Position numbers and translations under genes: made by a program. Below are positions 35,971 through 51,939 of a stretch of 64,000 bases of DNA, piece by piece. Position 1 is the stretch's first letter; each line of letters starts with the position of its first letter. Origin of the DNA: an uncultured Candidatus Saccharibacteria bacterium (GTDB lineage: Bacteria; Patescibacteriota; Minisyncoccia; Phycocordibacterales; UBA9973); assembly GCA_964500465.1 (NCBI GenBank), contig CAZCNB010000003.1:13882-77881 (forward strand), read 5' to 3'. A model generated the notes under the pieces. That model was not told where the DNA came from, ran no database searches, and saw only the letters and a list, made by a program, of their open reading frames with translations.

Positions 35971-38900
35971 TTAAGATATTGTTATAGTAAAGATCAGTTC
36001 ATCGATCTTTACTTCTACCCCACTATTTTCAGCTATATCAATCCGCTCTGCGCCTACAATTTTCAAAAGTTCGTCTTTCCAAGTATTGATCAAATCCTGT
36101 CCATCTACACTTGTTGCAATTTTTAGAGTTACTACATCGCTTGGATTTAACCCTTTTTCTTTTCGCATATCTTGAATAGCTCTTATGAGTTCACGATATT
36201 GTCCCTCTTTTTTCAAATCAAGAGTTATATGAGCATCCAACACAACAGGACCATCTATAGATTCATTATAAATAACTTCTTTTATATTTAACTCATCTTT
36301 AACAATCTCTACAAAAGGGTCATTCAAAACATAGCTCTTTACGCTTAGAGACTTTAAGGGTTGGCGAACTTTGATACCTGCTTTCTGACGAGCTTCAAGC
36401 CCTAGGGTTACCACATGACGAACGATACTCATTTCTGAAATTATATTTTCATCAATCTGCTCTACCTTAGGCCAATCTGAAAGGTGCACACTTTCAACAT
36501 CTTTACTATTTTTTAACTTTTGCCAAATACTCTCTGCTATAAAAGGAGTAAACGGAGCCATAAGTTTAACTGTTGTTTTTATAACTTTATATAAAGTTTC
36601 TTTTGCATCCTTATCTCCATCTTTTAATCTTTCTCTTGAGCGACGAAGATACCATGTAGAAAGATCTTCTATAAATAGATCAAACGGTCTTGTGGAAAGT
36701 GACATGTCATACATTTCCATATTTTTTGTAACTTCGTCTATAAGTTGTCCTAATCGAGCATTTATCCATCTGTCCAAAACATTTTCACTTTTACTTTCTC
36801 CACTATTCTCAAAATTAGTATCTCGATACAATTCGTAGAATGTTACTACGTTTTCAAAGCGAGAAATTATTTTACTTGCAATATCTTGGACTGATTTTTC
36901 AGAGAAATTTACATCTTCCCCTTTCATTACAGGACAAGACATTAAGTAGAAACGTAGTGCGTCTACCCCATATTTATCGAAAAGTATCCATGGATCAGGA
37001 AAATTGTTTTTAGATTTAGACATTTTCTGACCATCTTCAGCCAAAATTGTTCCAGTTGTAACAATATTTTCAAATGGTGCTTTTCCAAACAAAATAGTTG
37101 AAATTGTGTGAGTATAGTAAAACCATGTCCTCGTCTGAGCTATATATTCTGCCACAAATCCTGCTGGGAAATTGGTTTTTTGCCAATCTTCCCTTTCGAA
37201 TGGGAAATGATCTTGAGCGAAAGGCATTGAACCAGATTCAAACCAACAGTCTATAACCTCAGGAATACGGTAATATTCTTCTCCATCTTTTTCAATAGGG
37301 ACAAAATCAATATACGGCCTATGAAAATCTAGATCGTAGTCTTTGTTATGAGGAAAATACGTAAAAGGCAATTCTTGTACTTGCGCATTATTAAGATAGT
37401 TGTAATTCTCTTTATTTCTGATTAGTTCAAGCGTCTCTTCTATGCTAAATAAAGATGCGCCAGCTATCATAAGCCATGCGGGGCCTCCATGGGTAACTAT
37501 TAGAATTTTTTTATTTTTATATTGTTCTTCAAGTTGGAATAAAAAACTCATCGCTCGGCGCTTAACATCTAGATAAGACTCGTTCCCCTCTGGAGCATTT
37601 GCAAAATTTTCAACTGTTTTTGGATAAAGAGTATGATACTCTGCCCATGTACGACCTTCATACATAGGTAGAGATATCTCATGAAGTCGATCATCGAGAA
37701 TTATTTGCTCATCAGATAGACCTAAAATATCTTGAACTATTTTTGTTGTTTCCCTTGTACGATTAAACGGAGAAGTAATTATAAGATCTATGCCTTTATC
37801 TTTCATATCAAGAGCACTGGCGCGCACTTGTTCTTGTCCTTTTTCTGTAAGGTGACTACCGCTGTTTGTAACAGTATTTACAACATTTTTTACATTATGA
37901 TTTGTCTCACCATGGCGCATCACAAAATAAGTATTGCCAGATTTTTTGGTATGAGCTTTTAATTCTTCATTAGATTTTATAAACAAAATTTCACCAGCCT
38001 TATTTTTCCAAATAGGAAGTGGGCTTGCCCAATAACGATTACGGGATATAGTCCAATCTGGAGCACTTTCCATGGTATTTTTGAATCTGCCTTCTTTTAA
38101 GTGAGATGGTATCCAATTCATGGATTTGGCACTTGAAAGCATTTCATCTTTTGATTTTTGAATATTCACAAACCACGAAGGAAGTGCGTAGTACAAAAGT
38201 GGCGTATCGCATCTATAACAATGAGGATATGAGTGTATTATTTTTTCTTTTGCAAAAAGAGCACCTGCGTGAGCAAGGTATTTGATAATGGCTATATCAG
38301 TAGATTGATGATCTTCTTTTGGCTTTGCTTTCATTCCTATAAAATCTGTGACAATATTTGAAAACACTCCATTGTGTTCAACATGGCGTATAAAAGATAT
38401 ATGATTCTCTTCCGCGAGTTTCATGTCTTCTTCTCCGAATGCTGGAGCTTCATGAGCAATACCTGTTCCTTTATCTATAGTTACAAAATCGGCATGCCAA
38501 ACTCTCCATATATTATTTTTACCCGGAATATCAATATCTTTGTAATAAGTAAACACTGGCTCATATGTAAGACCTGTAAGCTCATGCCCTTCAACTTTTT
38601 TTACAAATTCTGGATTTACAAACTTATCTTTTAACTTTTCATATGATTCAGGAGTTAAAATCAATATTTCTTTTCCAGTTTCAGGGGTATGAGATATAAA
38701 TACGTAAGAAAGATTATTGTTTACTGCGATTGCGGTATTGCCTGGTAGTGTCCATGGAGTCGTGGTCCAAGCCAAAAGATATGTTGGAATTTCAGAATCT
38801 ATATTTAATTTAAATTTTACATAAACAGATATATCTGTTATATCTTTATAGCTGTTATCCATAGCAATTTCAGAATTTGCTATTGGTGTCTCACAACGTG

Positions 38901-39483
38901 GACAATATGCGAGAACCCTAACACCTTCATATAGAAGACCTTTTTTATTCATTTCACCAAGCGCCCACCATACACTCTCTATAAAAGAGTTATCCATTGT
39001 TTTGTAAGAATTTTCAAAATCAACCCAGCGACCGATTCGATCTACTGTTTTTTTCCATTCAGAAACATATGTTAAAACTTTACTACGAGCATGCTCAGTG
39101 AATTTTTCAACACCAAACTTTTCTATTTCCTTTTTACCAGAAATACCTAGATCTTTTTCCACTATATTCTCAATAGGTAATCCATGACAATCCCAACCCC
39201 AACGACGTGGTACTCTGAAACCTCTCATAGTCTGATAGCGACCAATAACATCTTTGGCAGTGGAACCAAGTATGTGACCATAGTGAGGAAGTCCAGTTGC
39301 AAATGGTGGTCCATCGTAGAAAACGTAATTTCCTTTTGGAGCATCTTTATCTAAACTTTTTTTGAAAGTATCATTCTCCTTCCAGAAATTTAAAATTTCT
39401 TCTTCGCGAATTGCAATGGAAGATTTTTTATTATCTATTTCTTTTGAATATCCTTTTGTTGGTTTTTCTTCGTTTCCTTGCAT
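35971..39483 (-). CDS. ileS: isoleucyl-tRNA synthetase, type 2 (eukaryote/archaeal-like), carrying an inserted histidine-phosphatase (PGAM-like) domain
   Basis: YDGPPFATGLPHYGHIL (HIGH region), a CP1 editing domain, WTISRNRYWASPLPIW, IDCWFESGSMPFAQ, and KMSKSKNN. Between the ISRNRYW segment and CWFESG lies ~170 aa with RHGET...SPFNRTRETT...VTHGG. The ORF-track start 39558 overlaps the leader terminator; ATG 39483 is the likely start. Confidence 0.85.
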   Translation of the reverse strand: MQGNEEKPTKGYSKEIDNKKSSIAIREEEILNFWKENDTFKKSLDKDAPKGNYVFYDGPPFATGLPHYGHILGSTAKDVIGRYQTMRGFRVPRRWGWDCHGLPIENIVEKDLGISGKKEIEKFGVEKFTEHARSKVLTYVSEWKKTVDRIGRWVDFENSYKTMDNSFIESVWWALGEMNKKGLLYEGVRVLAYCPRCETPIANSEIAMDNSYKDITDISVYVKFKLNIDSEIPTYLLAWTTTPWTLPGNTAIAVNNNLSYVFISHTPETGKEILILTPESYEKLKDKFVNPEFVKKVEGHELTGLTYEPVFTYYKDIDIPGKNNIWRVWHADFVTIDKGTGIAHEAPAFGEEDMKLAEENHISFIRHVEHNGVFSNIVTDFIGMKAKPKEDHQSTDIAIIKYLAHAGALFAKEKIIHSYPHCYRCDTPLLYYALPSWFVNIQKSKDEMLSSAKSMNWIPSHLKEGRFKNTMESAPDWTISRNRYWASPLPIWKNKAGEILFIKSNEELKAHTKKSGNTYFVMRHGETNHNVKNVVNTVTNSGSHLTEKGQEQVRASALDMKDKGIDLIITSPFNRTRETTKIVQDILGLSDEQIILDDRLHEISLPMYEGRTWAEYHTLYPKTVENFANAPEGNESYLDVKRRAMSFLFQLEEQYKNKKILIVTHGGPAWLMIAGASLFSIEETLELIRNKENYNYLNNAQVQELPFTYFPHNKDYDLDFHRPYIDFVPIEKDGEEYYRIPEVIDCWFESGSMPFAQDHFPFEREDWQKTNFPAGFVAEYIAQTRTWFYYTHTISTILFGKAPFENIVTTGTILAEDGQKMSKSKNNFPDPWILFDKYGVDALRFYLMSCPVMKGEDVNFSEKSVQDIASKIISRFENVVTFYELYRDTNFENSGESKSENVLDRWINARLGQLIDEVTKNMEMYDMSLSTRPFDLFIEDLSTWYLRRSRERLKDGDKDAKETLYKVIKTTVKLMAPFTPFIAESIWQKLKNSKDVESVHLSDWPKVEQIDENIISEMSIVRHVVTLGLEARQKAGIKVRQPLKSLSVKSYVLNDPFVEIVKDELNIKEVIYNESIDGPVVLDAHITLDLKKEGQYRELIRAIQDMRKEKGLNPSDVVTLKIATSVDGQDLINTWKDELLKIVGAERIDIAENSGVEVKIDELIFTITIS

Positions 39484-39700
39484 ATATAAAATAAAAACTC
39501 GTCCGCGTACAACAATTATAATAATTGCTATACAAGGACGAGTTTCTCGTGGTACCACCTTGCTTACTTCTCATTTTGTAGGGCTCTACTTCCAAAAAGG
39601 TTTCTTCCCCAAGCTCCAGAGTGATATCTCTTTCATCGCTTATATTTAAAGATTACTATATAAAACACATTTTTGCAAAGCTTGCATTTTATTTATCAAA
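39484..39700 (-). promoter_or_regulatory. T-box riboswitch leader of ileS (antiterminator, terminator, upstream stem region)
   Basis: On the mRNA strand the antiterminator reads CAAGG-UGGUACC-ACGAG-AAA-CUCGU-CCUUG, with the 7-nt bulge UGGUACC inside the T-box sequence AAGCAAGGUGGUACCACGAG. An overlapping terminator AAACUCGUCC...GGACGAGUUUUUAUUUU ends ~8 nt before the ATG. The upstream leader contains GAUAUCA, a candidate AUC specifier. Confidence 0.75.
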
Positions 39701-40123: not shown

Positions 40124-41848
40124 TTACATTTTCTCTGGAGTTTTTACTCCTAGGAGGTAGAGACCATTTTTCATAGTTTGGTAAAATGCTTCAACTATAG
40201 ATATACGATATGGAGCAAAAGGATCATTTTTATTTACTATAATAGTGTTACCATAGAAAGTATTAAACGCGCTTGCAAGCTCAGTTAGATATGTAGATAT
40301 GTGATGAGGTTCAAGAGTAAGATAAGATCTTTCTACGATTTCAGGGAATTGGTAAATCATTTTCTCAAGATTTGTAATTTCTATTGGTACATCTTTGTAT
40401 GATACACAAATACCTTCTAATTCCCCTTTTTTGATAATAGAATTTGCTCGGACTGCTGTGTATTGAAGATATGGACCAGAATCTCCTTCAAAAGATATAG
40501 ACTTTTCAAAATCATAAATAATATCCGAACCAAGTGAAGATTTAAGAATTGAATATTTTAGAGCTGATACTCCTACAATTTCAGATATTTCTTTTTTCTC
40601 TTCATCATTTAGTTCACGATCTTTTACTTTTTCATAAACTACTTCCATAGAATCATTTAATAGGGATTCACCTGTAACAACATTACCCTTTCTTGAAGAC
40701 ATCTTGCCCGAAGCAAGGCGCATCATCCCGTGAGTAATATGCTTCATGCGAGATTCATAATCAGGGTGAATAAGTGATACTGCTTTTTGAACAACTTTCA
40801 TATACTCACCTTGCTCTATTGCCGTCGTGATGATAGAAATATCTGGATTTTCTTTTTCAAATTTAGTAACAGTCAATCCAACTTCTTTTGTTTCATAGAG
40901 TGGTATCCCAAGTGAAGTGATAAATACACGGGTATGTAACTTGGGGTCATAGTTCTCTGCGTGAAATACAATAGCACCATCACTCTCTGTAAATACATTG
41001 CCAATATTTTCTCGGACAATTTTTTCTCCTATTGGAGCCATTTCACTTTCGAAGAAATAGTAGTTAAACTTTGTACCTAATTTCTTGTATATTTCTTCAA
41101 ATGCACGGAGTGTAATATCTCGACCCCAATCATATATTTTATTTATCTCATTATCAGATCTACTGTAGACTTTTTTGTTTATTTCATCGATTTGTATTTT
41201 AATAGCTTCACTATCTTCATATGCAGTTGCACCTTTTGAATAACATTCCCCTATCCAAAGAGCAAGTTCACTTGCAGGATCTGTTTTTAAAATATTTTCA
41301 TTATATGCTCCATCAGAAAGCCAAAGAATCCCATAAATAGCTTTTGCAACATGTAGGCCTACATCCCCTTGGTAATTTGCACGCACAGTATTTGCACCAG
41401 AGTATTCGACAATTCTAGAAATAGACTCGCCAATTGCGTTACTCATGAGGTGGCCAATATGAAAAGGTTTGAAAGGATTTGGCTGAGTATATTCAACCAT
41501 TACTTTTTTGCCAGATAAAAGATTATTATTTCCCCAGTTTTCTTTTTGTTTAAGAACTTCTTTTATACTATCTACAAAAAACTCATGTGATAAATAGAAA
41601 TTTATAAAACCAGCACCAGCAACTTCTATCTTTGATATTTCTTTTAGATTCTCTTTTTCAATTTCAGTTTTAATCTTTTCAGCAAGTTCTCTTGGACTTG
41701 TTCCTAGTTTTTTGGCATGTGCCATAGCAACATTGGTCGAATAATCACCATTATTTAAATCAGCTGGATGTTCAAGCGAAACATTCTGGGCTTCTATCCC
41801 AAGATTGCTTAAAGCATTTTTTATTAAAATTTCTATCTTTCTTTTCAT
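40124..41848 (-). CDS. argS: arginyl-tRNA synthetase
   Basis: HIGH region (PFHIGHLMSNAIG), catalytic core, C-terminal DALR anticodon-binding domain. The ORF track starts at 41890, overlapping dut; ATG 41848 abuts the dut stop. Confidence 0.9.
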   Translation of the reverse strand: MKRKIEILIKNALSNLGIEAQNVSLEHPADLNNGDYSTNVAMAHAKKLGTSPRELAEKIKTEIEKENLKEISKIEVAGAGFINFYLSHEFFVDSIKEVLKQKENWGNNNLLSGKKVMVEYTQPNPFKPFHIGHLMSNAIGESISRIVEYSGANTVRANYQGDVGLHVAKAIYGILWLSDGAYNENILKTDPASELALWIGECYSKGATAYEDSEAIKIQIDEINKKVYSRSDNEINKIYDWGRDITLRAFEEIYKKLGTKFNYYFFESEMAPIGEKIVRENIGNVFTESDGAIVFHAENYDPKLHTRVFITSLGIPLYETKEVGLTVTKFEKENPDISIITTAIEQGEYMKVVQKAVSLIHPDYESRMKHITHGMMRLASGKMSSRKGNVVTGESLLNDSMEVVYEKVKDRELNDEEKKEISEIVGVSALKYSILKSSLGSDIIYDFEKSISFEGDSGPYLQYTAVRANSIIKKGELEGICVSYKDVPIEITNLEKMIYQFPEIVERSYLTLEPHHISTYLTELASAFNTFYGNTIIVNKNDPFAPYRISIVEAFYQTMKNGLYLLGVKTPEKM

Positions 41849-41849
41849 A

Positions 41850-42278
41850 TTATTTATGACCAGTTGAACCAAAGCCTCCTCTGCTCTCATCTTTCATTTT
41901 ATCAACTTCTTCCCACTCTCCTATATCTACTCTTACAAAAGCGCCTTGGCCGATTCGTTCACCTTTTTCTATCTTAACATCATTGTCAGTCAAATTATAA
42001 ACCTGTAACAAAATCTCATCTTGCTCACCATGGTAATCGTTGTCTATATATCCAGTAGTCACAAGTAAACCCTTTTTCTTTAGAGTACTAGAGCGATCTT
42101 TTATCTCAAGCATATAACCTTTTGGAATTTCAATTATTACATTAGTAGGCAATCTCTCTAATCCTCTTGGCTTGATTACAGCATCAACACGTGAGTATAA
42201 ATCAAAAGCAACAGCACCAGATGTCTGATATTCAGGTAGTGGTAATGTATTATCGATTCTTTTAATATTTACTTTCAT
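41850..42278 (-). CDS. dut: dUTP pyrophosphatase
   Basis: Five dUTPase motifs, including the C-terminal RGGFGSTG. Confidence 0.9.
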   Translation of the reverse strand: MKVNIKRIDNTLPLPEYQTSGAVAFDLYSRVDAVIKPRGLERLPTNVIIEIPKGYMLEIKDRSSTLKKKGLLVTTGYIDNDYHGEQDEILLQVYNLTDNDVKIEKGERIGQGAFVRVDIGEWEEVDKMKDESRGGFGSTGHK

Positions 42279-42769
42279 TTTATTTCTAAAAAGAATTCTT
42301 TTAATAATTCTAGCGCATGAACGAAATCCTCTGGTTTTGTGTTAAGTAAGTTTTTTAATTCTTCTTTTGAAAACCACTTTACTTGCTCGAGTTCATTTTC
42401 TTGAATCTTAAATTTTGTATCCTTGGATATTTGCAGATTGTAAAAATAACAAAATTTGCTACCAGTTCGTGAGGTGTATAAAATTTTTTTAATTGGTTTG
42501 AGCGTAACACCTGTAATACCTAATTCTTCTTCTAATTCTTTATATGCATTGCTTTCATAAGTTTCCCCTTCTTCTACAGTACCTGCAACCCCAGGGCCCC
42601 ACAAACCAGGACTATGTTTCTTCTTAAATGATCTTTGAGCCATCAATATATTGTCGTTTCCATCTGTAATCCAAATAGCAGTAATGCGAACAATTTCGCC
42701 AGCTATTACATCATTTCTATCTTTATATTCTATTACTTCATCTTGATCATTTACTATCGGAATCTTCAT
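42275..42769 (-). CDS. NUDIX hydrolase
   Basis: Nudix box GTVEEGETYESNAYKELEEELGI. Confidence 0.8.
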   Translation of the reverse strand: MKIPIVNDQDEVIEYKDRNDVIAGEIVRITAIWITDGNDNILMAQRSFKKKHSPGLWGPGVAGTVEEGETYESNAYKELEEELGITGVTLKPIKKILYTSRTGSKFCYFYNLQISKDTKFKIQENELEQVKWFSKEELKNLLNTKPEDFVHALELLKEFFLEIK

Positions 42770-42805
42770 TAAATAAATATATCATGAATAGAGCTGTGAG
42801 TTTAT

Positions 42806-42834
42806 TTGACACAGTAGGTTTTAAATGATATAAT
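42806..42834 (+). promoter_or_regulatory. consensus sigma70-type promoter (TTGACA-17-TGnTATAAT) on the plus strand
   Basis: TTGACA 42806-42811, a 17-nt spacer, TG at 42826-42827, TATAAT 42829-42834. Confidence 0.6.
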
Positions 42835-42907
42835 GTAAAGAAATTTTTTATTGTTTTCCAAAGAAGATAGAAATCTGTCTTTTTCGGTAAAAAATAAAGA
42901 ATCTGTT

Positions 42908-43021
42908 ATGGGAAGAGTAAAAACAAAAGCCCGTTTAGATGCCGACCAAGATGGCTCTCGCCGTCGTAATGGATACACTCCGTATCCAAAAAAAATAAGG
43001 CACAGAAAGGGCAAGAGATGA
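42908..43021 (+). CDS. 37-aa highly basic peptide ORF (MGRVKTKARLDADQDGSRRRNGYTPYPKKIRHRKGKR), antisense context
   Basis: ATG 65 nt downstream of the consensus promoter, TGA stop, then a weak hairpin and a T-run (ggctagccgtaaggtaatgcctttt atttttt). Sits between convergently transcribed minus-strand tmk and NUDIX genes. No recognisable family. Confidence 0.35.
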   Translation: MGRVKTKARLDADQDGSRRRNGYTPYPKKIRHRKGKR

Positions 43022-43054
43022 CAACAATAGAGGCTAGCCGTAAGGTAATGCCTT

Positions 43055-43750
43055 TTATTTTTTAAGTAATATTTTCACTTTTTTATAAATTTCTTCGTGT
43101 ATATCTTCCCTAGTACGAACATTTTTACCGTCCGCACAATCTATTTTTTTAAAATATTTTAAAGTTTTTGAAAGCCATAGGGCGCTTTCACGAGAATTCT
43201 TTTGAAATTCTTTGTCAACTTCATGCACATCACTTCTACCCCCAGTATAGTTTCTCTTAGAGGTTGCATTTCTTTCCTTCATCATTTTAATAGAGACTTC
43301 AAGTGGGACGGATAAATATAAAACTACATCTGGTCTAGGGATTTTAAAAACTTTATGCTCCATAATATCGAGCCACTTTATAAATTCAGCTCTCTTTTTT
43401 GCATTTTTTATTTTTCCTCCTTGGTGAATTTGATTTGCAGAAACATATCTATTTGCAATTACCAGATACCCTTTCGCAAGCCAACCTTCGATCTCTTTTG
43501 ATGATTCCCATCTGTCAGCGGCGTAGAGTACCGATGCAATCTTTGGATGAACTTTTACAAAATTATAATATTGCTCAGAAAGGCAGTGGCCAATAAACTT
43601 ACCGAAAAAGTTTTTATAATATTCTGGAAAATCTACATTCTTTATTTTATATCCTTCCTTCTTTAGTCTTTCAGAAAGTAGAGCAACCTGTGTAGCTTTA
43701 CCACTTCCATCTGTACCATCTATAACTATAAATTTCCCCTTTTTTACCAT
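43055..43750 (-). CDS. tmk: thymidylate (dTMP) kinase
   Basis: P-loop FIVIDGTDGSGKATQ, DRW motif region (AADRWESS), LID. Confidence 0.85.
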   Translation of the reverse strand: MVKKGKFIVIDGTDGSGKATQVALLSERLKKEGYKIKNVDFPEYYKNFFGKFIGHCLSEQYYNFVKVHPKIASVLYAADRWESSKEIEGWLAKGYLVIANRYVSANQIHQGGKIKNAKKRAEFIKWLDIMEHKVFKIPRPDVVLYLSVPLEVSIKMMKERNATSKRNYTGGRSDVHEVDKEFQKNSRESALWLSKTLKYFKKIDCADGKNVRTREDIHEEIYKKVKILLKK

Positions 43751-43847
43751 AAAGCCATTATATAGGAGTAGTTTAAATAAGCCAAAATATCTTTATTTAC
43801 TTTATTTGAAATAGTGGTAATATGTCGATAAATCAAAACTAAAGTAT

Positions 43848-44411
43848 ATGATAGACAAACAACTAGAGTTGGGTGTCTGTCTGATACTCAACCAAGCACA
43901 AAGCCTTTTTCAAAAAAAGACTCAGGACTATGGAACTATATCTTGGCGAATTCTCAGAATGATATCATTGGCTGATCAGCTTTTCATAAAAGCTAAACGT
44001 ATTGGCGAAATATCAACTGGTATACAAAAAGTTACTGGTCCTGGTAATGACATAGAAAGTGAGTTCATAGGACTTATAAACTATGCTGTAATTGGAATGA
44101 TACAAAATAGGTTTGAAGAGTTACAGCCAGGGGAAAAACCTATGCCTGCAGAAGAAGCAATAAGTAACTACTCAGATATAGCTGACAAATTCTATAGTTA
44201 TTTCAAAAACCAACACGCTTACCTTGCAGATAAAATCCAAGGATATAGCACAAAAAAGTTCTCTGAAAAACTACAGATAAAATGCCAGAGGATTAAATAC
44301 ATATCCAAAATAAAAAATGAAGGTGCGCGCAAGATTGTTTTATTCGGTGCCTTTATGGAAATATTATTTTGGTCAACAGTTGGCCACGTAGCCTACAAAT
44401 CCACGCAATGA
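43848..44411 (+). CDS. hypothetical protein in the nucleotide-metabolism cluster
   Basis: 187 aa, soluble, with no catalytic motif I can name. The DYGTISWRILRMISLADQLFIKAKRI segment resembles a family I recall flanking thymidylate-metabolism genes (DUF1599-like; uncertain). Confidence 0.4.
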   Translation: MIDKQLELGVCLILNQAQSLFQKKTQDYGTISWRILRMISLADQLFIKAKRIGEISTGIQKVTGPGNDIESEFIGLINYAVIGMIQNRFEELQPGEKPMPAEEAISNYSDIADKFYSYFKNQHAYLADKIQGYSTKKFSEKLQIKCQRIKYISKIKNEGARKIVLFGAFMEILFWSTVGHVAYKSTQ

Positions 44412-44438
44412 TTCTAAATAAATCAACGCGTGGTATTT

Positions 44439-44871
44439 TTATTTCTTATCGTAGTAATTTTTACCTGTTTTATATGCATCTATCGCATGAGTACAGAAAC
44501 TAAATACCGGTGGAGGAATATTATCTATATCGCACCATTCCCAATTCTCACGTTTTTCTGGTTCCATAACTTTTGGTTCACCACTCTCCCAATCTGCAGT
44601 AAGTTCTATATTAACATAATGATGTGGTTCATAGGCAGTTACATTTTCAACTGCTAAAAATCTAACATTTTTAATAGTTACCCCCGGCTTCTTCTAAAGT
44701 CTCACGCTTTGCACAATCTTCAAATGATTCTCCGAAATCTAGATGCCCTCCTGGGAATGCATATTCACCCGCCCCATGTGAACCCTTACGTCTTCCCATA
44801 AGAACTTTTCCATCTTTGAAGATCATTATCCCAACACCTACTCTAATTTTTCCAAGATCGTTATTACTCAT
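44439..44871 (-). pseudogene. NUDIX hydrolase interrupted by a -1/+1 frameshift at a C5 run
   Basis: Frame A gives [66 protein letters not shown]. The adjacent frame continues the fold from 44680 ([60 protein letters not shown]...DKK*). The junction is at tacccccggc around 44670-44680, inside the Nudix box. Confidence 0.65.
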
Positions 44872-44872
44872 T

Positions 44873-45286
44873 TTACTCTTTAAAAATACTTTCTAAAATT
44901 TTTTTTATATCTTCTCTAGTTTCATAAGGAAATATTTCGCAGTGTGGACTGCCAACTATCATAGATGATACCCTTTTGCCCGGAGTATTATGATATAAAC
45001 AACAAATCCTTTTATTTAAATTCTCAGCATATGATATCTCATACCCAACACCAAGCGAAGGTGTAGTAATATCGGCTATTATTATTTCTGAATCTTTTAT
45101 TAGTGCAACATCTCGATCATATATCTCTTTATCTGTCATACCAACAGTCCCATAGCTTGTCAGATTTTTATCTGAAACAAACTCTGTGAGAACTTCACCG
45201 TATCCTTGCAAAAGTCCTACGATATATTCATACCATTCTTGATGTTCTCTACCTCCTTTGATTGACCCTGAAAAATATATTTTCAT
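44873..45286 (-). CDS. 2'-deoxynucleoside 5'-phosphate N-hydrolase (DNPH1/Rcl-like; nucleoside 2-deoxyribosyltransferase superfamily)
   Basis: [23 protein letters not shown]...[28 protein letters not shown] aligns with DNPH1 (YFCGSIRGGR...[10 protein letters not shown]...NKRILCLF). Confidence 0.75.
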
Positions 45287-45289
45287 AAA

Positions 45290-45757
45290 TTATTTATCAC
45301 TTAGTTCTTTTAAGGCTTCTTCTGCGTAAAATTTAATATTTGGAACCAAATCCATAATTTGTAAATCTTCCATTGTTGCCCATTTTATTTCTGATCCTTT
45401 TTCGTGTTCAAGAATAGAATCTGATATAACATCGGTATTTGATTTAGCAAAATACACATGCACCAGGTGCTCATGAGTATCATTCACTCTATGGCGACCT
45501 AGATATTGCGGGGGCATGATTATCTTGAAATCTTTCTCTCCTAAATCAGGAACAGGTTTACCTATAAGCTCTATATCAAGCCCAACTTCTTCTTTAACTT
45601 CACGAATTGCTGCTTCTATCGGATCTTCATCAAGTTCAATATGACCACCTACTGAACACCAGACATTGTATTTGTCATGCATACGAAGAAGGACTTTGTC
45701 TTTGTAGACGATAAATACTTCTACTGTAAAATCTATTTTTTCGTGAATGTGGGGCAT
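45290..45757 (-). CDS. NUDIX hydrolase
   Basis: GGHIELDEDPIEAAIREVKEEVGL. Confidence 0.8.
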   Translation of the reverse strand: MPHIHEKIDFTVEVFIVYKDKVLLRMHDKYNVWCSVGGHIELDEDPIEAAIREVKEEVGLDIELIGKPVPDLGEKDFKIIMPPQYLGRHRVNDTHEHLVHVYFAKSNTDVISDSILEHEKGSEIKWATMEDLQIMDLVPNIKFYAEEALKELSDK

Positions 45758-45758
45758 G

Positions 45759-46157
45759 TTATTTAATTAGCTTAATAACTTCTTTAAAATATATATCCAT
45801 CGGTTCTAATTTTTCGATTTCTTCTATTGAAAACCATCCATATTGATCGTGTTCATCGCTGATAACTACTTCTCCATCTGCTTCACCTATATAAGTAAGT
45901 CTTAAAACATGTCTACCTTCTACACGTAGTATATCTTGAGCTTCGATCAATTTTGGTTTTCCATTTATTTCAAGACCAGTTTCTTCCATTACCTCCCTTT
46001 TTAGATTGTCTACCAGAGTGCTTCCCGGATCAATCCGTCCGCCGACTATATCCCATTTTGCTCCAACCTCTGGATACTTTTCTGCCGAACGTCTAACAAG
46101 GAGATATTTTCCTTCTTTATTCTTCAGCAAAATTTTTACACCAACTTGGAGATCCAT
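45759..46157 (-). CDS. NUDIX hydrolase
   Basis: GGRIDPGSTLVDNLKREVMEETGL. Confidence 0.8.
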   Translation of the reverse strand: MDLQVGVKILLKNKEGKYLLVRRSAEKYPEVGAKWDIVGGRIDPGSTLVDNLKREVMEETGLEINGKPKLIEAQDILRVEGRHVLRLTYIGEADGEVVISDEHDQYGWFSIEEIEKLEPMDIYFKEVIKLIK

Positions 46158-46158
46158 G

Positions 46159-47337
46159 CTATTTCTTTCCTTTTAAAATTTTATCGATCTTGTGAGCGAT
46201 CTTTTTCATATCCTTTTCTTTCTTGCCAATTGTGGTTTCTGCACAAGTACCAAGACGAATTCCCGATGGATCCATTACAGAACGAGGGTCTCCTGGAATT
46301 GTATTCATATTTACTATAATCCCAGCTTTCTCTAGTCTTTTACTTGCTTCACTACCAGAAACACCTTTGCCGTTCATCCATGTATCCATAAGGATTAGAT
46401 GGGAATCTGTACCTCCAGAGATAATATGCCATCCAAGTTTTTGAAGTTCGTTTGCAAGAGTTTGAGCATTTTTAACAACTTGTTTTGCATACTTTTTGAA
46501 AGCCGGAGTATCTGCTTCCTTCAGTGCAATTGCAACAGCTGCGATATTGTTCTCATGCGGACCACCAAATAGCCCTGGTATTACCATCTTATCTAACTTT
46601 TTATCAAATTCTCGAGAATCTTTTTTTACAAATAGAAGTGCTTGCCTCGGACCACGAAGAGATTTGTGAGTTGTTGTCATTACAGAATCTGCATATGGAA
46701 ATGGTGATGGATATACTCCTCCCGCAACCAAACCTGCGAAGTGTGACATATCTACGTGAAGAAGTGCACCACATTTATCTGCAATCGCACGAAACTTTTT
46801 AAAATCTACAGTTCTTGGATATGCAGTAAATCCTGCAACAATAATATCTGGACGTTCAACTTGAGCAAGTGACTCGAGTGCTTTGTAATCAATAATTTCT
46901 GATTTAGGATCAAGTTCAAATTGAAGTGGTTTCCAAAGTTTACCTGTCATAGAAAGAGGGTGGCCGTGAGTAAGGTGCCCGCCAGAAGTTAACTTCATGC
47001 CCATTATTTTTCCACCTAGTGGAACTAGTGCTGAGTAAAGTGCAAAGTTTGCAGGACTACCCGAAAGAAGTTGCGCATTTACATGCCAATTTTCTTTTTT
47101 AAGTTTGAAAAGTTTTAGTGCACGATCAATACAAAGTTGTTCAACTTTATCGATAACTTCATTCCCGCCATAGTATCTACGACCCGGGTAACCTTCTGCG
47201 TATTTGTTTGTAAGTTTGGAGCCGAGAGCTTTTAATACATCATCGGAAACATAGTTTTCAGAGGCAATAAGATTGATAACACTTTTCTGTCTTTTTTCTT
47301 CTGCTTTTATTAATTTTTCTACTTGTTTGTCTTTCAT
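46159..47337 (-). CDS. glyA: serine hydroxymethyltransferase
   Basis: LIASENYVS, YAEGYPGRRYYGG, and the PLP-lysine region TTTHKSLRGPR. Confidence 0.9.
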   Translation of the reverse strand: MKDKQVEKLIKAEEKRQKSVINLIASENYVSDDVLKALGSKLTNKYAEGYPGRRYYGGNEVIDKVEQLCIDRALKLFKLKKENWHVNAQLLSGSPANFALYSALVPLGGKIMGMKLTSGGHLTHGHPLSMTGKLWKPLQFELDPKSEIIDYKALESLAQVERPDIIVAGFTAYPRTVDFKKFRAIADKCGALLHVDMSHFAGLVAGGVYPSPFPYADSVMTTTHKSLRGPRQALLFVKKDSREFDKKLDKMVIPGLFGGPHENNIAAVAIALKEADTPAFKKYAKQVVKNAQTLANELQKLGWHIISGGTDSHLILMDTWMNGKGVSGSEASKRLEKAGIIVNMNTIPGDPRSVMDPSGIRLGTCAETTIGKKEKDMKKIAHKIDKILKGKK

Positions 47338-47441
47338 AGTTTAAATAGCGCGTTGCGCATTAGTTTGGTAAATTTAGGATTTTGGAGTTAGATCATATAT
47401 TTTAAAGCTTTTTAATGAACTTATTTTAGCACGTTTGAATT

Positions 47442-48188
47442 TTATAAGAAAATTAGCTTAAAAGCTGTTCCAAGTATAAGAATTCCTATGATTGGCTTCA
47501 ACCAAGCGTTTCCTTTTTTGATAGAAAAAGCAGTTCCAAGATAGCCTCCTACCATCATTCCAAAAAACATTATAATTGCATACTTATAATTAATTAATCC
47601 AGAGATTGCAAATACAACAACTGAACTTATTATGCTTAATAAAAGAGGAATACGAGTAACTGCCTTACCTTGAAGAAGAGTAAATCCATAACCTCGGGTA
47701 CGTACGTAGATATCAATAAAACCTGATCCAGGACTAAAGAAGCCAGACCAAGCTTGAGAAATAAAGTATGCAACATGAGAAAGTATTCTACGTTTACCTG
47801 TAGCCCTATTAGCTTTTAAACCTAAATCCTTTTGAATAAAAAACAATGGAAGTATAATTAACAAAATAAATCCAATTAATTTTTCAAGGACATCAGGTTT
47901 AATTGACACAACAATACGACTTCCTATTACTGATGCTGGTACACTTATAAGTGTAAGAATAATTACATCTCTTTTTAAAACACCCATATTGTTACTTTTT
48001 GCGAAACGTATAATATTACCAATCTTAGCCCCAACATCTCCAAAATTTAATGTACCTAGAGCAATGTGTGGGGGTATACCTATAAATAGAAGCGCAGAAA
48101 CCCCTACTAATCCTGACCCAGCAGCAACACTGCCAATAAAGGAAGCAACAAGACCTGAGATAAAAATAAATATTTCTGTATAAAACAT
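47442..48188 (-). CDS. TauE/SafE-family (DUF81) membrane exporter
   Basis: ~8 TM helices with Gly-rich repeats (AAGSGLVGVSALLFIG). Confidence 0.65.
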   Translation of the reverse strand: MFYTEIFIFISGLVASFIGSVAAGSGLVGVSALLFIGIPPHIALGTLNFGDVGAKIGNIIRFAKSNNMGVLKRDVIILTLISVPASVIGSRIVVSIKPDVLEKLIGFILLIILPLFFIQKDLGLKANRATGKRRILSHVAYFISQAWSGFFSPGSGFIDIYVRTRGYGFTLLQGKAVTRIPLLLSIISSVVVFAISGLINYKYAIIMFFGMMVGGYLGTAFSIKKGNAWLKPIIGILILGTAFKLIFL

Positions 48189-48282
48189 TTCTAGTTTTCA
48201 AGAAATCAAATAATAGAGCAGACTCCTTAATTCATTGATTTTAGCATGTTGAACAAGAAAGCAAAAACTGTATAATGGGGTT

Positions 48283-49248
48283 ATGAAAACCTACGAATAT
48301 GATAAAAATCCAGACAAAGAATACCTATCTTTAATGAAGCATATATTAGAGAATGGTGTAGATCGTGAAGAACGTACTGGTGTAGGAACTCGTAGTGTGT
48401 TTGGACACCAAGTAAGATTTGATTTATCTAAAGGATTCCCTCTTTTAACAACTAAAAAAGTTTTTATGCGTGGAATAATTCATGAGCTTCTTTGGTTCTT
48501 AACTGGAGATACAAATATAAAATACCTTGTACGTAACGATGTAAAAATTTGGAACGAGTGGGCCTTTCAAGTTTACTTAGAAAAAAATGACCTTACTAAA
48601 ACATTACCACGCTATTCACCAGAGTGGACAGAAAAACTAGAATGGTTTGTACAACAAATAAAAGAGAGTGATGAGTTCGCAAGTGCTTGGGGCGAACTCG
48701 GTCCGATATATGGTAAACAGTGGAGGGATTGGGAAACCCCAAAAGGAGGGCACATCGATCAGATCCAGAATATTATTGATATGTTAAAAAATGATCCTTC
48801 ATCTCGTAGGATAATTGTAAGTGGTTGGAATGTTGGAGAAATATATGACTTAATACACGATCATAATCATGCTCCACCTCCATGCCACTCTCTATTTCAA
48901 TTCCATGTATTAAATGGCAAATTATCACTTCAACTTTACCAAAGAAGTGCTGACTACTTTTTAGGAGTACCGTTTAATATTGCTTCTTACTCTCTTCTAC
49001 TTATGATGGTAGCGCAAGTTACTGGATATGAAGTTGGTGAATTTGTATGGACTGGAGCAGATGTACACTTATATCTAAATCATCTTGATCAAGCTAAATT
49101 ACAGATTTCTAGAGAAAATGATATTCGCCCTTCCCCAACTATGAAAATAAATCCTAATGTTAAAAATATATTTGATTTCAAGTTCGAAGATTTTGAACTA
49201 GTGGATTATAACCCTCATGATGCTATCAAAGCACCTATTGCTGTATAA
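48283..49248 (+). CDS. thyA: thymidylate synthase (ThyA, long Lactobacillus-type with insert)
   Basis: [21 protein letters not shown], the catalytic Cys in [11 protein letters not shown], and dUMP-specific [12 protein letters not shown]. Near-collinear with L. casei TS, including its ~50-aa insert. Confidence 0.9.
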
Positions 49249-49251
49249 AAT

Positions 49252-49764
49252 ATGATTCTTTCTTTAATTGCTGCAGTTGCAAAAAATGGTGTAATCGGAG
49301 GTAGTAATACCCTTCTTTGGAATATAACTGAAGATCTAAAACACTTCAAAGAAAAAACTTCAGGTCACACAGTTATAATGGGAAGAAAAACATTTGAAAG
49401 TATTGGTCGCCCACTTCCAAACAGAAAAAATATAGTTATTACGCGAGATTTAAATTATTTTCAACCAGGAATAGACATTGTTAGCTCACTCGATGAAGCT
49501 TTAAGGATAGCATCACTTGAACAAGGGCGTGGGTTTGAAGAAAACCAAGATGAAGTTGAAGTATTTATCATTGGCGGAGGAGAAATATATAGGCAAGGAA
49601 TAGACAGAGCCAATAAATTATATATTACAGAAGTTCATCAAGATTTTGAAGGTGACACAAGATTTCCCAATATAGATAAAAGCAAATGGAGAGAAACATT
49701 TCGAAAAGATTATCTAGATGCACCAATTCCCTATTCGTTCGTAGAATATAAAAAATCCGCTTAG
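49252..49764 (+). CDS. folA: dihydrofolate reductase
   Basis: ILSLIAAVAKNGVIGGSNTLLW, GRKTFESIGRPLPNR. Confidence 0.85.
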   Translation: MILSLIAAVAKNGVIGGSNTLLWNITEDLKHFKEKTSGHTVIMGRKTFESIGRPLPNRKNIVITRDLNYFQPGIDIVSSLDEALRIASLEQGRGFEENQDEVEVFIIGGGEIYRQGIDRANKLYITEVHQDFEGDTRFPNIDKSKWRETFRKDYLDAPIPYSFVEYKKSA

Positions 49765-49782
49765 CACTAAGCGGATTTTTTA
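49752..49782. terminator. bidirectional rho-independent terminator overlapping the folA stop
   Basis: aaaaatccgctta-gcac-taagcggattttt. Confidence 0.8.
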
Positions 49783-50109
49783 TGGATCAATATCAGTTTT
49801 TTCTCTTATAAATATATCTTTTCCATCTGGAGATTTAATCTTTTTATATCTACGATTTTTATTTACTTCTATTTTGCGGACAAGTTCTTTTTCAAGATCA
49901 TATCCAAGTATTTCGCACATACCAAGTAAAAAAACTGCTACATCTGCAAACTCTTCAGCAACACCATCTTGATTTTTATTGAATTTTGAAAATGCTTCAG
50001 AAAGCTCTTCATGAGCACGGCAAAATTCAAGGGCAACGTCAGTAGTATTGAACCCTTTTTCAAGTTTATTACGCATCACTTCTTTTTGTAATTCTTTTAG
50101 GTCAACCAT
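49780..50109 (-). CDS. MazG-like nucleotide pyrophosphohydrolase (small all-alpha NTP-PPase)
   Basis: 109 aa with EExxE/D motifs (RAHEELSEAFSKF...AEEFADVAVFLLGM). Confidence 0.7.
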   Translation of the reverse strand: MVDLKELQKEVMRNKLEKGFNTTDVALEFCRAHEELSEAFSKFNKNQDGVAEEFADVAVFLLGMCEILGYDLEKELVRKIEVNKNRRYKKIKSPDGKDIFIREKTDIDP

Positions 50110-50113
50110 ATAT

Positions 50114-50593
50114 TTATTTCATATTACTCTTATATTTTCGTAAATTTACTTTTGCTAATTTGAACATCCTGACAGAAGCTTTGTCAGATGGTGTATTTGC
50201 GTATTTATTGTCTTCATATATAACTTCTTTAATACCATTTTGAATTATTGTTTTAGCACACTCATTGCAAGGAAATAAAGTAGAGTATAATTTACAGTTT
50301 TTAGTAGAGTTGTTTGCATTATATATTGCATTTTCTTCGGCATGACAAATATAAGCGTATTTTGTATCTTCTAGGCTTCCTTCTTTTCCCCAGGGTAAAT
50401 CTGTATTTTTTATTCCTCTAGGAAAGCCATTATATCCTAAACCAACAACAATATTATTTTGATCCACAATTACAGAACCTACTTGAGTAGAAGGATCTTT
50501 AGATCTGCCTGATATGACATGAGCCATGCGCATAAATGTCTCATCCCAAGATGTTGCTTTTCTAGGAGTAACCTTTTTGACTGATTTCTTCAT
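50114..50593 (-). CDS. dCMP deaminase (cytidine/deoxycytidylate deaminase zinc-binding family)
   Basis: HAEENAI ... PCNECAKTI zinc ligands. Size and context fit dCMP deaminase feeding ThyA. Confidence 0.85.
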   Translation of the reverse strand: MKKSVKKVTPRKATSWDETFMRMAHVISGRSKDPSTQVGSVIVDQNNIVVGLGYNGFPRGIKNTDLPWGKEGSLEDTKYAYICHAEENAIYNANNSTKNCKLYSTLFPCNECAKTIIQNGIKEVIYEDNKYANTPSDKASVRMFKLAKVNLRKYKSNMK

Positions 50594-50631
50594 AGGCTAA
50601 ATATACTCCCAATAAATACTAAATACAACTA

Positions 50632-51939
50632 TTATAGATTATCAGGTGCAGCTTCCAGTCTTAGAGTTACATTTTTCTCTATCCCTTTTGAAAGGACTCT
50701 AAATGTTACATAATCTCCAACCTTCTTATCTCTAATCAAATTGGCGAAACTTTGATCTTGGTCAATTTTTGTTCCATCTATCTCGAGGATTATGTCATTC
50801 TCAACTATACCTGCTTTATCAGCTGGAGAACCAGGTACTACAGCCAAATCTGCTTGATTCGTTCCTCGTTGAACCAAAACTCCATAATCTACGCTAAGAT
50901 TATTTTTTGCTTTAATATCAGCATTAACAGGTATATATCGAACACCCACATATGGTCTTACAATTTTACCGGTACTTTTAACTGAGTTTATTGCACTTTT
51001 TACACTATTTATCGGCAAAGCAAATCCAACATTAGACGAACCTTGAACCACTGCAACATTTATGCCAATAACATCTCCATGAATATTGAGTAATGGTCCT
51101 CCAGAATTACCTGGATTAATAGCAGCATCGGTCTGTATAACTTTATCAAGCCTCTCAGATTGACCCATGCCATTACCAGCTACCACTGAACGAGAAAGCC
51201 CTGAGACAACACCAACAGAAACAGTGTTTTTAAATTCTCCAAGTGCATTACCAATAGCAATTACCGTCTCACCAACATCTAAAGTATCAGAATCTGCTAG
51301 GTTTAAATATGGTAAGTCGCTAGCGTTAATTTTTACTAATGCTACATCAAGTACTCCGTCACGAGCTAGAACTTTTGCAGTGTATTTTTTACCATTGTTA
51401 AGTTGTACTTCATATATAGCATTAGTATCAGCTACAACGTGTTTATTTGTAACAATCATTCCGTCTGGTGAAATCAAAAATCCAGAACCACTTCCTATTT
51501 GTTTCCTTTCAGTACCATTTTGCTTATATATTGGTGTTTGGAAAAATCCTGGGAATAGTCCGCCGAATGGATCGCTACTTTGATCGTATGTAACATCATA
51601 TTTAGGAACATCTTTGCTTACAATAATAGACACGACTGCTGGTTTTGCCTTTTTTACTGAGCTAACAACTGTATCCTCAGTGTGAACCACTACTTCTTCT
51701 CTTGTAGGGCTTGCGGTTTCATTTGGCTTTGGATCAAATACTAAATTGTTAGTAGGAGAAAATTGGGCCGAATAATTTTTTGCTAAAACTTTAAAAATCT
51801 GATCTCGATAATGCCAAGCAATTAAGGCTATTAATGCTAAGGTTATTATTATAGTTATAAAACTTACAACAACTGCTCTAACAACAGGATCTTTAAACAT
51901 TTTATTAATCTTTTCTTTGTTTAGATTTGAGTTTTGCAT
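50632..51939 (-). CDS. HtrA/DegP-family serine protease with N-terminal TM anchor and C-terminal PDZ domain
   Basis: Catalytic His (VTNKHVV) and Asp, GNSGGPLLN around the catalytic Ser, and a PDZ domain. Confidence 0.85.
   Translation of the reverse strand: MQNSNLNKEKINKMFKDPVVRAVVVSFITIIITLALIALIAWHYRDQIFKVLAKNYSAQFSPTNNLVFDPKPNETASPTREEVVVHTEDTVVSSVKKAKPAVVSIIVSKDVPKYDVTYDQSSDPFGGLFPGFFQTPIYKQNGTERKQIGSGSGFLISPDGMIVTNKHVVADTNAIYEVQLNNGKKYTAKVLARDGVLDVALVKINASDLPYLNLADSDTLDVGETVIAIGNALGEFKNTVSVGVVSGLSRSVVAGNGMGQSERLDKVIQTDAAINPGNSGGPLLNIHGDVIGINVAVVQGSSNVGFALPINSVKSAINSVKSTGKIVRPYVGVRYIPVNADIKAKNNLSVDYGVLVQRGTNQADLAVVPGSPADKAGIVENDIILEIDGTKIDQDQSFANLIRDKKVGDYVTFRVLSKGIEKNVTLRLEAAPDNL

Follow-up and report, generated by a model that had tools for sequence, protein, structure and literature searches.

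A thymidylate gene cluster in a Nomurabacteria-like bacterium: a conserved pathway backbone with a probably exchangeable set of house-cleaning hydrolases

The 64,000-nucleotide (nt) stretch of contig CAZCNB010000003.1 analysed here, called the window in the following, carries at 41850-50593 a dense cluster of 14 predicted genes that revolves around thymidylate synthesis. In the order of their coordinates, these encode dUTPase, the NUDIX protein NudA, thymidylate kinase (Tmk), a DUF1599 protein, NudB, a DNPH1/Rcl-like protein (DNPH1-like), NudC, NudD, serine hydroxymethyltransferase (SHMT), a TauE/SafE-family protein (TauE), thymidylate synthase (ThyA), dihydrofolate reductase (DHFR), a MazG-like protein and dCMP deaminase (Dcd). 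All 14 gene calls of an earlier note on this DNA were reproduced with their coordinates from the open reading frame (ORF) list for 39-53 kb of the window. Every ORF is present and the Pfam domains agree with the names it had given, with the MazG-like protein recognised via motifs and fold. None of the domain searches reassigned a member to an unrelated function, and the ORF at 43848-44411, previously listed as hypothetical, encodes the DUF1599 protein. Nearly all parts of the cluster belong to well-known enzyme families; pathway and families are textbook knowledge, and current understanding is not overturned. The locus is an expanded thyA-folA neighbourhood typical of its lineage within the Candidate Phyla Radiation (CPR), not a new system. 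Its source is a Nomurabacteria-like CPR/Patescibacteria bacterium; the genomes nearest in ThyA are a Candidatus Nomurabacteria metagenome-assembled genome (MAG, 86%) and an unclassified MAG (83%), and other CPR classes reach 60-69%.

The thymidylate-cycle enzymes form the core of the cluster. Dcd (dCMP to dUMP; 50114-50593, minus strand; PF00383 dCMP_cyt_deam_1, E 1.5e-24) is a stand-alone protein of 159 aa with the motifs GYNG53, HAEEN84 and PCNEC108 and matches the PHROG dCMP deaminase with E 5.7e-43, i.e., it shows all hallmarks of ComEB/DCTD-type dCMP deaminases (HAExN, PCxxC, GYNG, about 160 aa, stand-alone). The trimeric dUTPase (41850-42278, minus; PF00692, E 1.1e-21) carries the motifs GYIDNDYHGE at residue 76 and RGGFGSTG at the C-terminus; its gene overlaps that of NudA by 4 nt as well as the start of the arginyl-tRNA synthetase (ArgRS) gene. 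ThyA (48283-49248, plus; PF00303, E 1e-112) is a canonical thymidylate synthase with an L. casei-type insertion, which aligns over its full length to enzymes of 315-321 aa and matches thymidylate synthases from the PDB, including those of E. coli and L. casei, with E 4e-106. Its motifs PPCH199, YQRSAD219 and PFNI230 include both the catalytic Cys and the Asn that specifies dUMP. The DHFR gene (49252-49764, plus; PF00186, E 1.1e-56) starts 3 nt downstream of ThyA. SHMT (46159-47337, minus; PF00464, E 2e-150) has the pyridoxal phosphate-lysine motif TTTHKSL at residue 221 and heads a tightly packed run of genes, and Tmk (43055-43750, minus; PF02223, E 5.8e-21) passes the NCBIfam TIGR00041 cut-off with 84.0 bits (cut-off 83.25) and shows the P-loop GTDGSGKAT and a DRW motif. 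Judged by these domains and motifs, the full enzyme set for dCMP/dUTP to dUMP, dTMP and dTDP is encoded, plus the regeneration of methylene-tetrahydrofolate (THF). The complete route from dCMP to dTDP named in the earlier note is present, and the SHMT/ThyA/DHFR folate cycle is likewise complete.

The genes are tightly packed. Gaps within SHMT-NudD-NudC-DNPH1-NudB are only 1-3 nt, ThyA and DHFR are separated by 3 nt, Dcd and MazG by 4 nt, and NudA and dUTPase overlap by 4 nt. From this spacing we infer the transcription units [HtrA?-Dcd-MazG], [ThyA-DHFR], [TauE?-SHMT-NudD-NudC-DNPH1-NudB], [DUF1599], [Tmk] and [NudA-dUTPase-ArgRS]. The best promoter-like sites of ThyA (48249-48276, plus) and Tmk (43785-43757, minus) end about 7 nt before the respective start codons; if these sites, which are consensus matches only, are real, both mRNAs would be leaderless. 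The GC content is flat across the cluster (0.33-0.36), and this uniformity rules out a foreign or mobile island by composition. Scanning the whole window with Rfam at gathering thresholds yields three tRNAs only, and a relaxed scan (E≤1) of 41500-51000 adds a single spurious 28-bit small RNA match. Given these scan results, we reject a control by riboswitches or other non-coding RNAs, e.g., the ZTP or THF riboswitches found upstream of glyA/folate genes.

The earlier note had asked whether the arrangement recurs in related genomes or is a matter of chance. All relatives examined share, with slight variations in order, one backbone: MazG - DHFR/ThyA - Dcd - SHMT - [slot] - Tmk - [slot] - dUTPase. 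They comprise the loci L007, L008, L087-L090, L093 and L186 as well as two further loci, one of them flanked by ArgRS and one without such flank; it is not a chance arrangement. Individual loci lack Dcd, MazG or ThyA/DHFR (e.g., L007, L008 and the further ArgRS-flanked locus). Most relatives also share the flanks, which are ArgRS (then isoleucyl-tRNA synthetase, IleRS, where the sequence reaches it) on one side and HtrA, a CAAX protease or an S9 peptidase on the other. In further CPR classes (Saccharibacteria, Magasanik-, Kerfeld-, Komeili- and Gracilibacteria), Dcd, dUTPase, Tmk, ThyA and DHFR are clustered as well, with other orders and flanks. Such clustering is unusual among bacteria, as the earlier note had claimed: searching by tblastn with the window proteins within ±10 kb of ThyA, we find three to six of six core families at 10/17 CPR/DPANN-labelled loci, while all 63 non-CPR loci hold one or two only (ThyA with or without DHFR), and none goes beyond this pair. 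Our literature search found no paper that describes the present CPR cluster.

Accessory genes are confined to two slots, SHMT-Tmk and Tmk-dUTPase, and the number of NUDIX genes ranges from 0 to 4 among the relatives. The SHMT-Tmk slot holds DUF1599, three NUDIX genes and DNPH1 in the window and in L087 (with DUF1599 - NudB - DNPH1 - NudC - NudD in the window's order in L087/L088), DUF1599, adh_short and two NUDIX genes in L089, DNPH1 and Ppx/GppA in L093, two NUDIX genes and PaaX_M in L186, and one NUDIX gene in L007. The further ArgRS-flanked locus shows adh_short and DNPH1 at this place, the other one CYTH and two NUDIX genes. Between Tmk and dUTPase we find NudA (window, L007, L008), Peptidase_S51 (L087), an uncharacterised gene (L089), Rhodanese (L186), nothing (L093), or a NUDIX gene (further ArgRS-flanked locus).

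Identities differ strongly from gene to gene. Compared to L087, they amount to 98% for SHMT and ThyA, 93% for DNPH1 and MazG, 91% for dUTPase, 87% for ArgRS, 86% for IleRS, 76% for DHFR, 53% for DUF1599 and 32% for Dcd. Compared to L093, MazG (81%) and SHMT (82%) contrast with ThyA (29%) and ArgRS (42%). The window's Dcd is 60-65% identical to that of Saccharibacteria, Kerfeldbacteria and Komeilibacteria. Given this mosaic, gene positions appear to be kept while their occupants are sometimes replaced by distant homologues. A horizontal acquisition of thyA by Patescibacteria has been reported (PMC12455944), which fits such an in-place replacement. We also observed ThyA-DHFR pairs with 60-67% identity to the window's ThyA on contigs that bear the labels of DPANN archaea (Nanoarchaeia, Micrarchaeota) and, in one case, of Methanosarcinales (L011, L022, also L012). 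This suggests that either the pair has been exchanged between the CPR and DPANN groups or the contigs are mis-binned.

Four nt downstream of Dcd lies the gene of the MazG-like all-alpha NTP pyrophosphohydrolase (49780-50109, minus; 109 aa). It misses the gathering score of Pfam PF12643 (25.1 bits, cut-off 27); many homologues with 85-96% identity are precomputed as members of this family. We uphold the MazG assignment despite the sub-threshold score because its acidic metal-binding motifs of the form EExxE/EExxD, i.e., EELSE at 34-38 and EEFAD at 52-56, are invariant in 26 sequences and because the top fold matches are MazG proteins only. The AlphaFold2 (AF2) model (mean per-residue confidence pLDDT 84) shows the four helices of the MazG fold and an extra C-terminal beta-hairpin. 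Its 12 best Foldseek matches all belong to the MazG family, as do nearly all lower ones with a probability above 0.5; among the matches are 7ody, 1vmg (Sulfolobus, TM-score 0.73), 5ie9, 2gta, 2oig (DCTPP1) and DR2231, and the enzymes retrieved include S-2L MazZ, Bacillus MazG and YpjD, and mouse DCTPP1. Probabilities are 0.9-1.0 for the best eleven, with E-values of only 0.03-0.5. The PHROG pyrophosphatase is matched with E 8e-13. Homologues form 1,418 clusters, of which the best 120 are all 85-96% identical, and the protein is 81-93% identical in relatives whose ArgRS identity is 42-87%. On these comparisons the MazG-like gene appears to be the most conserved gene of the locus. In relatives that possess it, it adjoins Dcd or DHFR, even where a Dcd of only 32% identity has taken the usual place. 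Thymidylate synthesis in human cells receives dCMP from DCTPP1, an all-alpha dCTP pyrophosphatase (PMC7162842). By analogy, the MazG-like protein would most likely convert dCTP or modified dCTP to dCMP that feeds Dcd.

The DNPH1-like protein (44873-45286, minus; PF05014 Nuc_deoxyrib_tr, E 2e-11) is a homologue of 2'-deoxynucleoside 5'-phosphate N-hydrolases and matches human DNPH1 (9da1, 8os9) and rat Rcl over residues 3-134 of 137 (phmmer, E 1.7e-24). Human DNPH1 is a nucleotide-pool sanitiser that acts on 5-hydroxymethyl-dUMP (hmdUMP), using the triad Tyr24/Asp80/Glu104, the water-activating Glu55 and the phosphate-binding Ser98/Ser128' (PMC10603095). The aligned counterparts Y4, D59, E83, E35, S77 and S107 are invariant or, for E83, nearly so in 23 sequences. 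Human His56, which contacts the uracil O2 and stabilises the hydroxymethyluracil leaving group, is not kept in the window protein and its close clade, which show F36 (TEF); distant CPR homologues retain TEH. Homologues form more than 2,300 clusters at 90% identity, the named ones from Paceibacterota, Parcubacteria or Patescibacteria, such that the idea of DNPH1 homologues being uncommon in bacteria fails for the CPR. Outside the species, 4/7 genomic contexts place the gene beside SHMT, Tmk or ThyA, among them L094, an unrelated CPR neighbourhood where it adjoins ThyA.

All four NUDIX genes match the Nudix box GX5EX7REUXEEXGU, with single substitutions in NudA and NudD. NudA (42275-42769, minus; PF00293, E 5e-20) resembles YfcD/DR0079 (PDB 2fkb YfcD, E 5e-11), and its Nudix box reads GTVEEGETYESNAYKELEEELGI, where K substitutes for R. 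It sits in the variable Tmk-dUTPase slot, a position held by Peptidase_S51 in L087/L088 and by a gene of 189 aa in L089. NudC (45290-45757, minus; PF00293, E 2e-15; PDB 3f6a, E 4.5e-19) has a complete Nudix box and a weak resemblance to dihydroneopterin-triphosphatase. NudD (45759-46157, minus; PF00293, E 1.3e-19; PDB 3grn, E 7e-17) is MutT/NudI/NudG-like with weaker NudI and CTP pyrophosphohydrolase matches, and S replaces the first E of its Nudix box. A recent tandem duplication is ruled out by mutual identities of at most 36% over partial alignments; the four proteins are distinct subfamilies.

NudB (44439-44871, minus), which is NUDT15/AtNUDX1-like, is frameshifted by one additional G at 44681-44685, leaving 66 codons (44671-44871) in frame, in which Pfam still recognises the NUDIX domain. 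On the minus strand, the resulting G5 run leads to an end in EEAGGNY followed by a stop codon, and deleting one G restores a protein of 143 aa with a complete Nudix box that matches Arabidopsis NUDX1 with E 2e-30 and human NUDT15 with E 5e-29. Contigs from several independent assemblies encode an identical DUF1599 protein beside this gene; the G5 allele is present in five of them (the window and four others, L001-L004), which rules out a sequencing or assembly error. One assembly (L006, SRR29870297) carries an intact G4 allele in surrounding DNA of 100% identity, and L087 has an intact orthologue. That is, the frameshift is a real, recent and polymorphic inactivation, with the inactive allele predominating. 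A programmed or phase-variable frameshift appears unlikely, since the tract has only 4-5 bases. In the sister strain L088, the NudD orthologue has lost its C-terminal half by an internal deletion of about 175 nt (L088 8763-8990 compared to L087 9901-10296), such that two NUDIX genes of the cluster have been inactivated independently.

The DUF1599 protein (43848-44411, plus; PF07659, 'Nucleotide modification associated domain 1', NMAD1; E 1.6e-21, 76.9 bits with a cut-off of 25) occupies the same cluster position in L087-L090. Its AF2 model (pLDDT 92) is all-alpha with eight helices, where repeat 1 is canonical and repeat 2 is degenerate. A structure search gave no PDB fold match, and its relatives among predicted structures are phage NMAD1 proteins only. 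Outside the CPR, the family is found mostly in Bacteroidota, and in Flavobacterium the gene sits beside folP in divergent orientation. Among metagenome loci, folP lies immediately upstream in 26/57 loci with enough upstream sequence and is present in 39/80 overall. Folate-related neighbours of DUF1599 in two distant phyla are a lead, not proof. A literature search found no functional study of DUF1599. Two other associations were rejected: a tie to thymidylate genes in phages, since no cluster family lies near DUF1599 in the seven viral loci and the two jumbo phages of Chryseobacterium inspected, and a general link to TauE, suggested by the Flavobacterium loci L091/L092 but found in 0/38 metagenome loci.

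TauE (47442-48188, minus; PF01925, E 1e-28) is a membrane protein and a species-specific insertion, for which no counterpart lies between SHMT and ThyA in L007, L008, L087, L089, L093 or L186. The earlier note had counted it as a cluster member; its absence at the corresponding position in all relatives examined speaks against this.

Taken together, we consider it probable that the locus represents a lineage-conserved thymidylate super-cluster that combines a fixed pathway backbone with an exchangeable house-cleaning set, and not one co-adapted machine of 14 genes. Here, dUMP would come from two sources, namely from dCMP via dCMP deaminase and from dUTP via dUTPase, and the MazG-like enzyme would feed dCMP or dUMP into the pathway. 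ThyA would methylate dUMP to dTMP using 5,10-methylene-THF, with DHFR and SHMT regenerating the cofactor, and Tmk would phosphorylate dTMP to dTDP. Going by family and context, the NUDIX and MazG proteins are expected to act on aberrant (d)NTPs, and the DNPH1-like protein on aberrant dNMPs such as 5-substituted dUMP. Both variable slots would hold different small nucleotide (pyro)phosphate hydrolases in each relative that police the deoxynucleotide pool. Slot content turns over fast by gain, loss, frameshift, deletion and replacement with distant homologues, and it is this rapid turnover that argues for a fixed backbone with an exchangeable set over a single machine. We do not retain the proposal of five house-cleaning hydrolases as a fixed module: NUDIX numbers vary between 0 and 4 among the relatives, with one gene frameshifted here and another carrying an internal deletion in L088. 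The suggested module dedicated to scavenging and detoxifying host-derived nucleotides stands in part. A gene set for conversion and policing is indeed clustered, but no acquisition gene was recognised, i.e., the cluster is without a nucleoside kinase, phosphorylase, nucleotidase or recognisable nucleoside/nucleotide transporter.

More specific roles can be proposed tentatively, and we hold them to be possible but rather doubtful as a set: the MazG-like protein could be a dedicated feeder that converts dCTP (or dUTP) to the respective dNMP, i.e., a bacterial DCTPP1 counterpart, DUF1599 could be a folate- or thymidylate-linked factor and not, as its Pfam name implies, a protein of nucleotide modification, and the DNPH1-like protein could repair aberrant 5-substituted dUMP around ThyA.

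Several observations weigh against the interpretation as a super-cluster with a pool-policing set. Since close relatives share the order of the flanking housekeeping genes too, much of their synteny could be plain inheritance, and very divergent homologues of the core families at non-CPR loci could escape a tblastn search. Given F36 in place of His56, hmdUMP need not be a substrate of the DNPH1-like protein, and 3/7 of its sampled contexts outside the species are without thymidylate genes. All NUDIX paralogues stay below the NCBIfam equivalog cut-offs, and the sole strong match to a characterised group (NUDX1/NUDT15) is that of the repaired pseudogene NudB. With NudA nearest to the YfcD/IPP-isomerase type and NudC near dihydroneopterin-triphosphatase, some NUDIX proteins may be unrelated to dNTPs. 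In a different explanation, only the backbone is functionally coupled, and NUDIX, DNPH1-like, DUF1599 and TauE are unrelated passengers that gather where a highly expressed locus tolerates insertions between its genes. Their substrates would then not be deoxynucleotides but, e.g., isoprenoid diphosphates, NAD(H), ADP-ribose, pterin triphosphate or RNA caps. This is in accordance with an accessory content that differs in nearly every relative, including the unrelated Peptidase_S51, adh_short, Rhodanese, PaaX_M and TauE, with two NUDIX genes inactivated in natural strains, and with the lack of equivalog-level assignments (NudA is like YfcD/Idi, and AtNUDX1, the family of NudB, also hydrolyses geranyl diphosphate, going by PDB names). 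On the other hand, the slots are strongly enriched in families of nucleotide phosphohydrolases (NUDIX, CYTH, Ppx/GppA, DNPH1 and MazG) across independent relatives, the DNPH1-like gene adjoins ThyA also in the unrelated context of L094, and the spacing of 1-3 nt downstream of SHMT implies co-transcription. We thus regard passengers as an unlikely explanation, albeit one to be taken seriously.

Two further explanations take up the phage-like and defence-like features of the genes. The locus could make or handle a modified DNA base such as 5-hydroxymethyl-uracil, in analogy to the hypermodification modules of phages, where a ThyA-like hydroxymethylase occurs together with dCMP deaminase, dUTPase/MazG and NMAD domains. 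The Pfam name of DUF1599 and its sole structural relatives, the phage NMAD1 proteins, would fit, as would hmdUMP as the known cellular substrate of DNPH1 and the phage-like parts, i.e., the PHROG matches of dCMP deaminase and pyrophosphatase. Yet ThyA is canonical: it matches characterised enzymes with E 4e-106 and has both the nucleophilic Cys and the Asn that specifies dUMP. DHFR beside ThyA is expected only where ThyA oxidises folate to dihydrofolate, and here it follows ThyA directly, which points to true methylation. The cluster shows no glycosyl-, amino-acyl- or kinase-type base-modifying enzyme, its GC content is uniform across the region, and the chromosomal position of DUF1599 beside folP in many Bacteroidota is unlike a phage-style role. 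Base modification is therefore very unlikely in our view. We give hardly any credence to an anti-phage locus that depletes nucleotides with effectors of the dCTP deaminase, dNTPase or NUDIX type. It is suggested by partial matches of Dcd to two models, 'anti-phage dCTP deaminase' of NCBIfam and dCTPase of PADLOC, by a NUDIX match to the PADLOC candidate PDC-S07, and by MazG, dUTPase and NMAD domains being predicted, not validated, in defence systems (PMC13092281). The NCBIfam match of Dcd, however, reaches 86 bits with a cut-off of 400 and covers the deaminase core only, with the best PADLOC dCTPase stretch at positions 434-485 of 630, and Dcd itself is a stand-alone dCMP deaminase of 159 aa with GYNG motif and strong PHROG match. 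PADLOC gives no match for DUF1599, DNPH1-like or MazG-like, and the locus is embedded in housekeeping genes at a conserved position.

Assuming the conserved backbone with its exchangeable set, the locus bears on how these bacteria obtain their thymidine nucleotides. CPR bacteria generally are without de novo nucleotide synthesis (PMC4742961; PMC12455944), and salvage exposes the dNTP pool to damaged precursors (PMC12887539). Since CPR/Patescibacteria presumably rely on the import of nucleotides, securing and cleaning thymidine nucleotides would be central to their biology, and pool cleaning by NUDIX and DNPH1-like proteins would be valuable. The whole deoxythymidine branch forms one conserved neighbourhood whose parts are readily exchanged between lineages. 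It further yields hypotheses from genomic context for bacterial DNPH1 homologues, for a minimal and highly conserved MazG-like enzyme and for DUF1599. Three points merit further attention: the MazG-like protein with its extreme conservation, the His-to-Phe clade of DNPH1-like proteins and the tie of DUF1599 to folate/thymidylate genes.

The earlier note had also proposed searching for missing de novo synthesis genes. Among about 54 window ORFs searched with Pfam, with four ORFs between 60376 and 63766 left out, we find none for de novo nucleotide synthesis. The rest of the window holds housekeeping genes, i.e., those for aminoacyl-tRNA synthetases, TopA, DprA, RelA/SpoT, ParB, ClpB, IF-2, RNase J, SSB and RecO. 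About 9 kb from the cluster of L186, a DHO_dh-family gene of the dihydroorotate/dihydropyrimidine dehydrogenase type is located at 1-911; given this gene, a total absence of pyrimidine-ring metabolism in the Nomurabacteria lineage should not be assumed.

Some features of the window lie outside the conserved cluster genes. The spacer between NudA and Tmk (42770-43054, 285 nt) is species-specific and absent from relatives, and no Rfam family matched it. On the plus strand, i.e., antisense to the neighbouring genes, it shows a perfect extended sigma-70 consensus at 42806-42834 (TTGACA-17-TG-n-TATAAT, 12/12), followed by a possible very basic ORF of 37 codons at 42908-43021 (plus), MGRVKTKARLDADQDGSRRRNGYTPYPKKIRHRKGKR. 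IleRS (35971-39558, minus; 1195 aa) contains a complete histidine-phosphatase domain (PF00300 His_Phos_1, E 1.1e-34, residues 545-708, RHG motif) inserted between the halves of its catalytic domain, and the same is found in L087, L089, L093 and the further ArgRS-flanked locus. A protein of 652 aa (22473-24431, minus) has two stretches that match the eukaryotic PF02177 APP_N, the growth-factor-like N-terminal domain of the amyloid precursor protein (APP), with E 1.1e-21. It matches human APP structures with E 1e-5, e.g., PRIAMWYGKVNQH against PQIAMFCGKLNMH, and has a C-terminal peptidoglycan-binding domain. An APP_N domain is unexpected for a CPR bacterium.

Among known systems, the thyA-folA (thyA-dfrA) operons of Firmicutes, Bacteroidota and many others share the order of ThyA followed by DHFR on the same strand, a pairing that we find in 41/63 non-CPR loci. 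In contrast to these operons, the present pair is joined by SHMT, dCMP deaminase, dUTPase, Tmk, the MazG-like protein and house-cleaning hydrolases; a third core gene within 10 kb is observed in 0/63 non-CPR loci. The deoxynucleotide-synthesis set of phage T4 comprises td, frd, cd, the dCTPase/dUTPase gp56, the dNMP kinase gp1 and NudE. Both T4 and the present locus thus combine thymidylate synthase, DHFR, dCMP deaminase, a dUTP/dCTP pyrophosphatase, a dNMP kinase and NUDIX proteins. Unlike the phage set, the present locus is chromosomal and position-conserved with uniform GC content, adds SHMT and the DNPH1-like protein, and is without hydroxymethylase, ribonucleotide reductase and thymidine kinase.

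The eukaryotic SHMT-TYMS-DHFR cycle together with human DUT, DCTPP1, NUDT15 and DNPH1 provides another parallel, since the cluster holds a homologue of each, and the adjacency of MazG and Dcd mirrors the human route from DCTPP1 via dCMP and DCTD to TYMS (PMC7162842). Eukaryotic genes are dispersed, whereas those of the window are clustered, with a pseudogene as NUDT15-like member, Phe for His56 in the DNPH1-like protein and, in place of DCTPP1, a minimal MazG-like form of 109 aa with an extra C-terminal beta-hairpin. Finally, the DUF1599/NMAD1 proteins of Bacteroidota and phages belong to the same Pfam family as the one found here and share its two-repeat, all-alpha architecture and its size of about 180 aa, but repeat 2 of the CPR clade has degenerated, and the gene partners are Tmk, NUDIX and SHMT here compared to folP in Bacteroidota.

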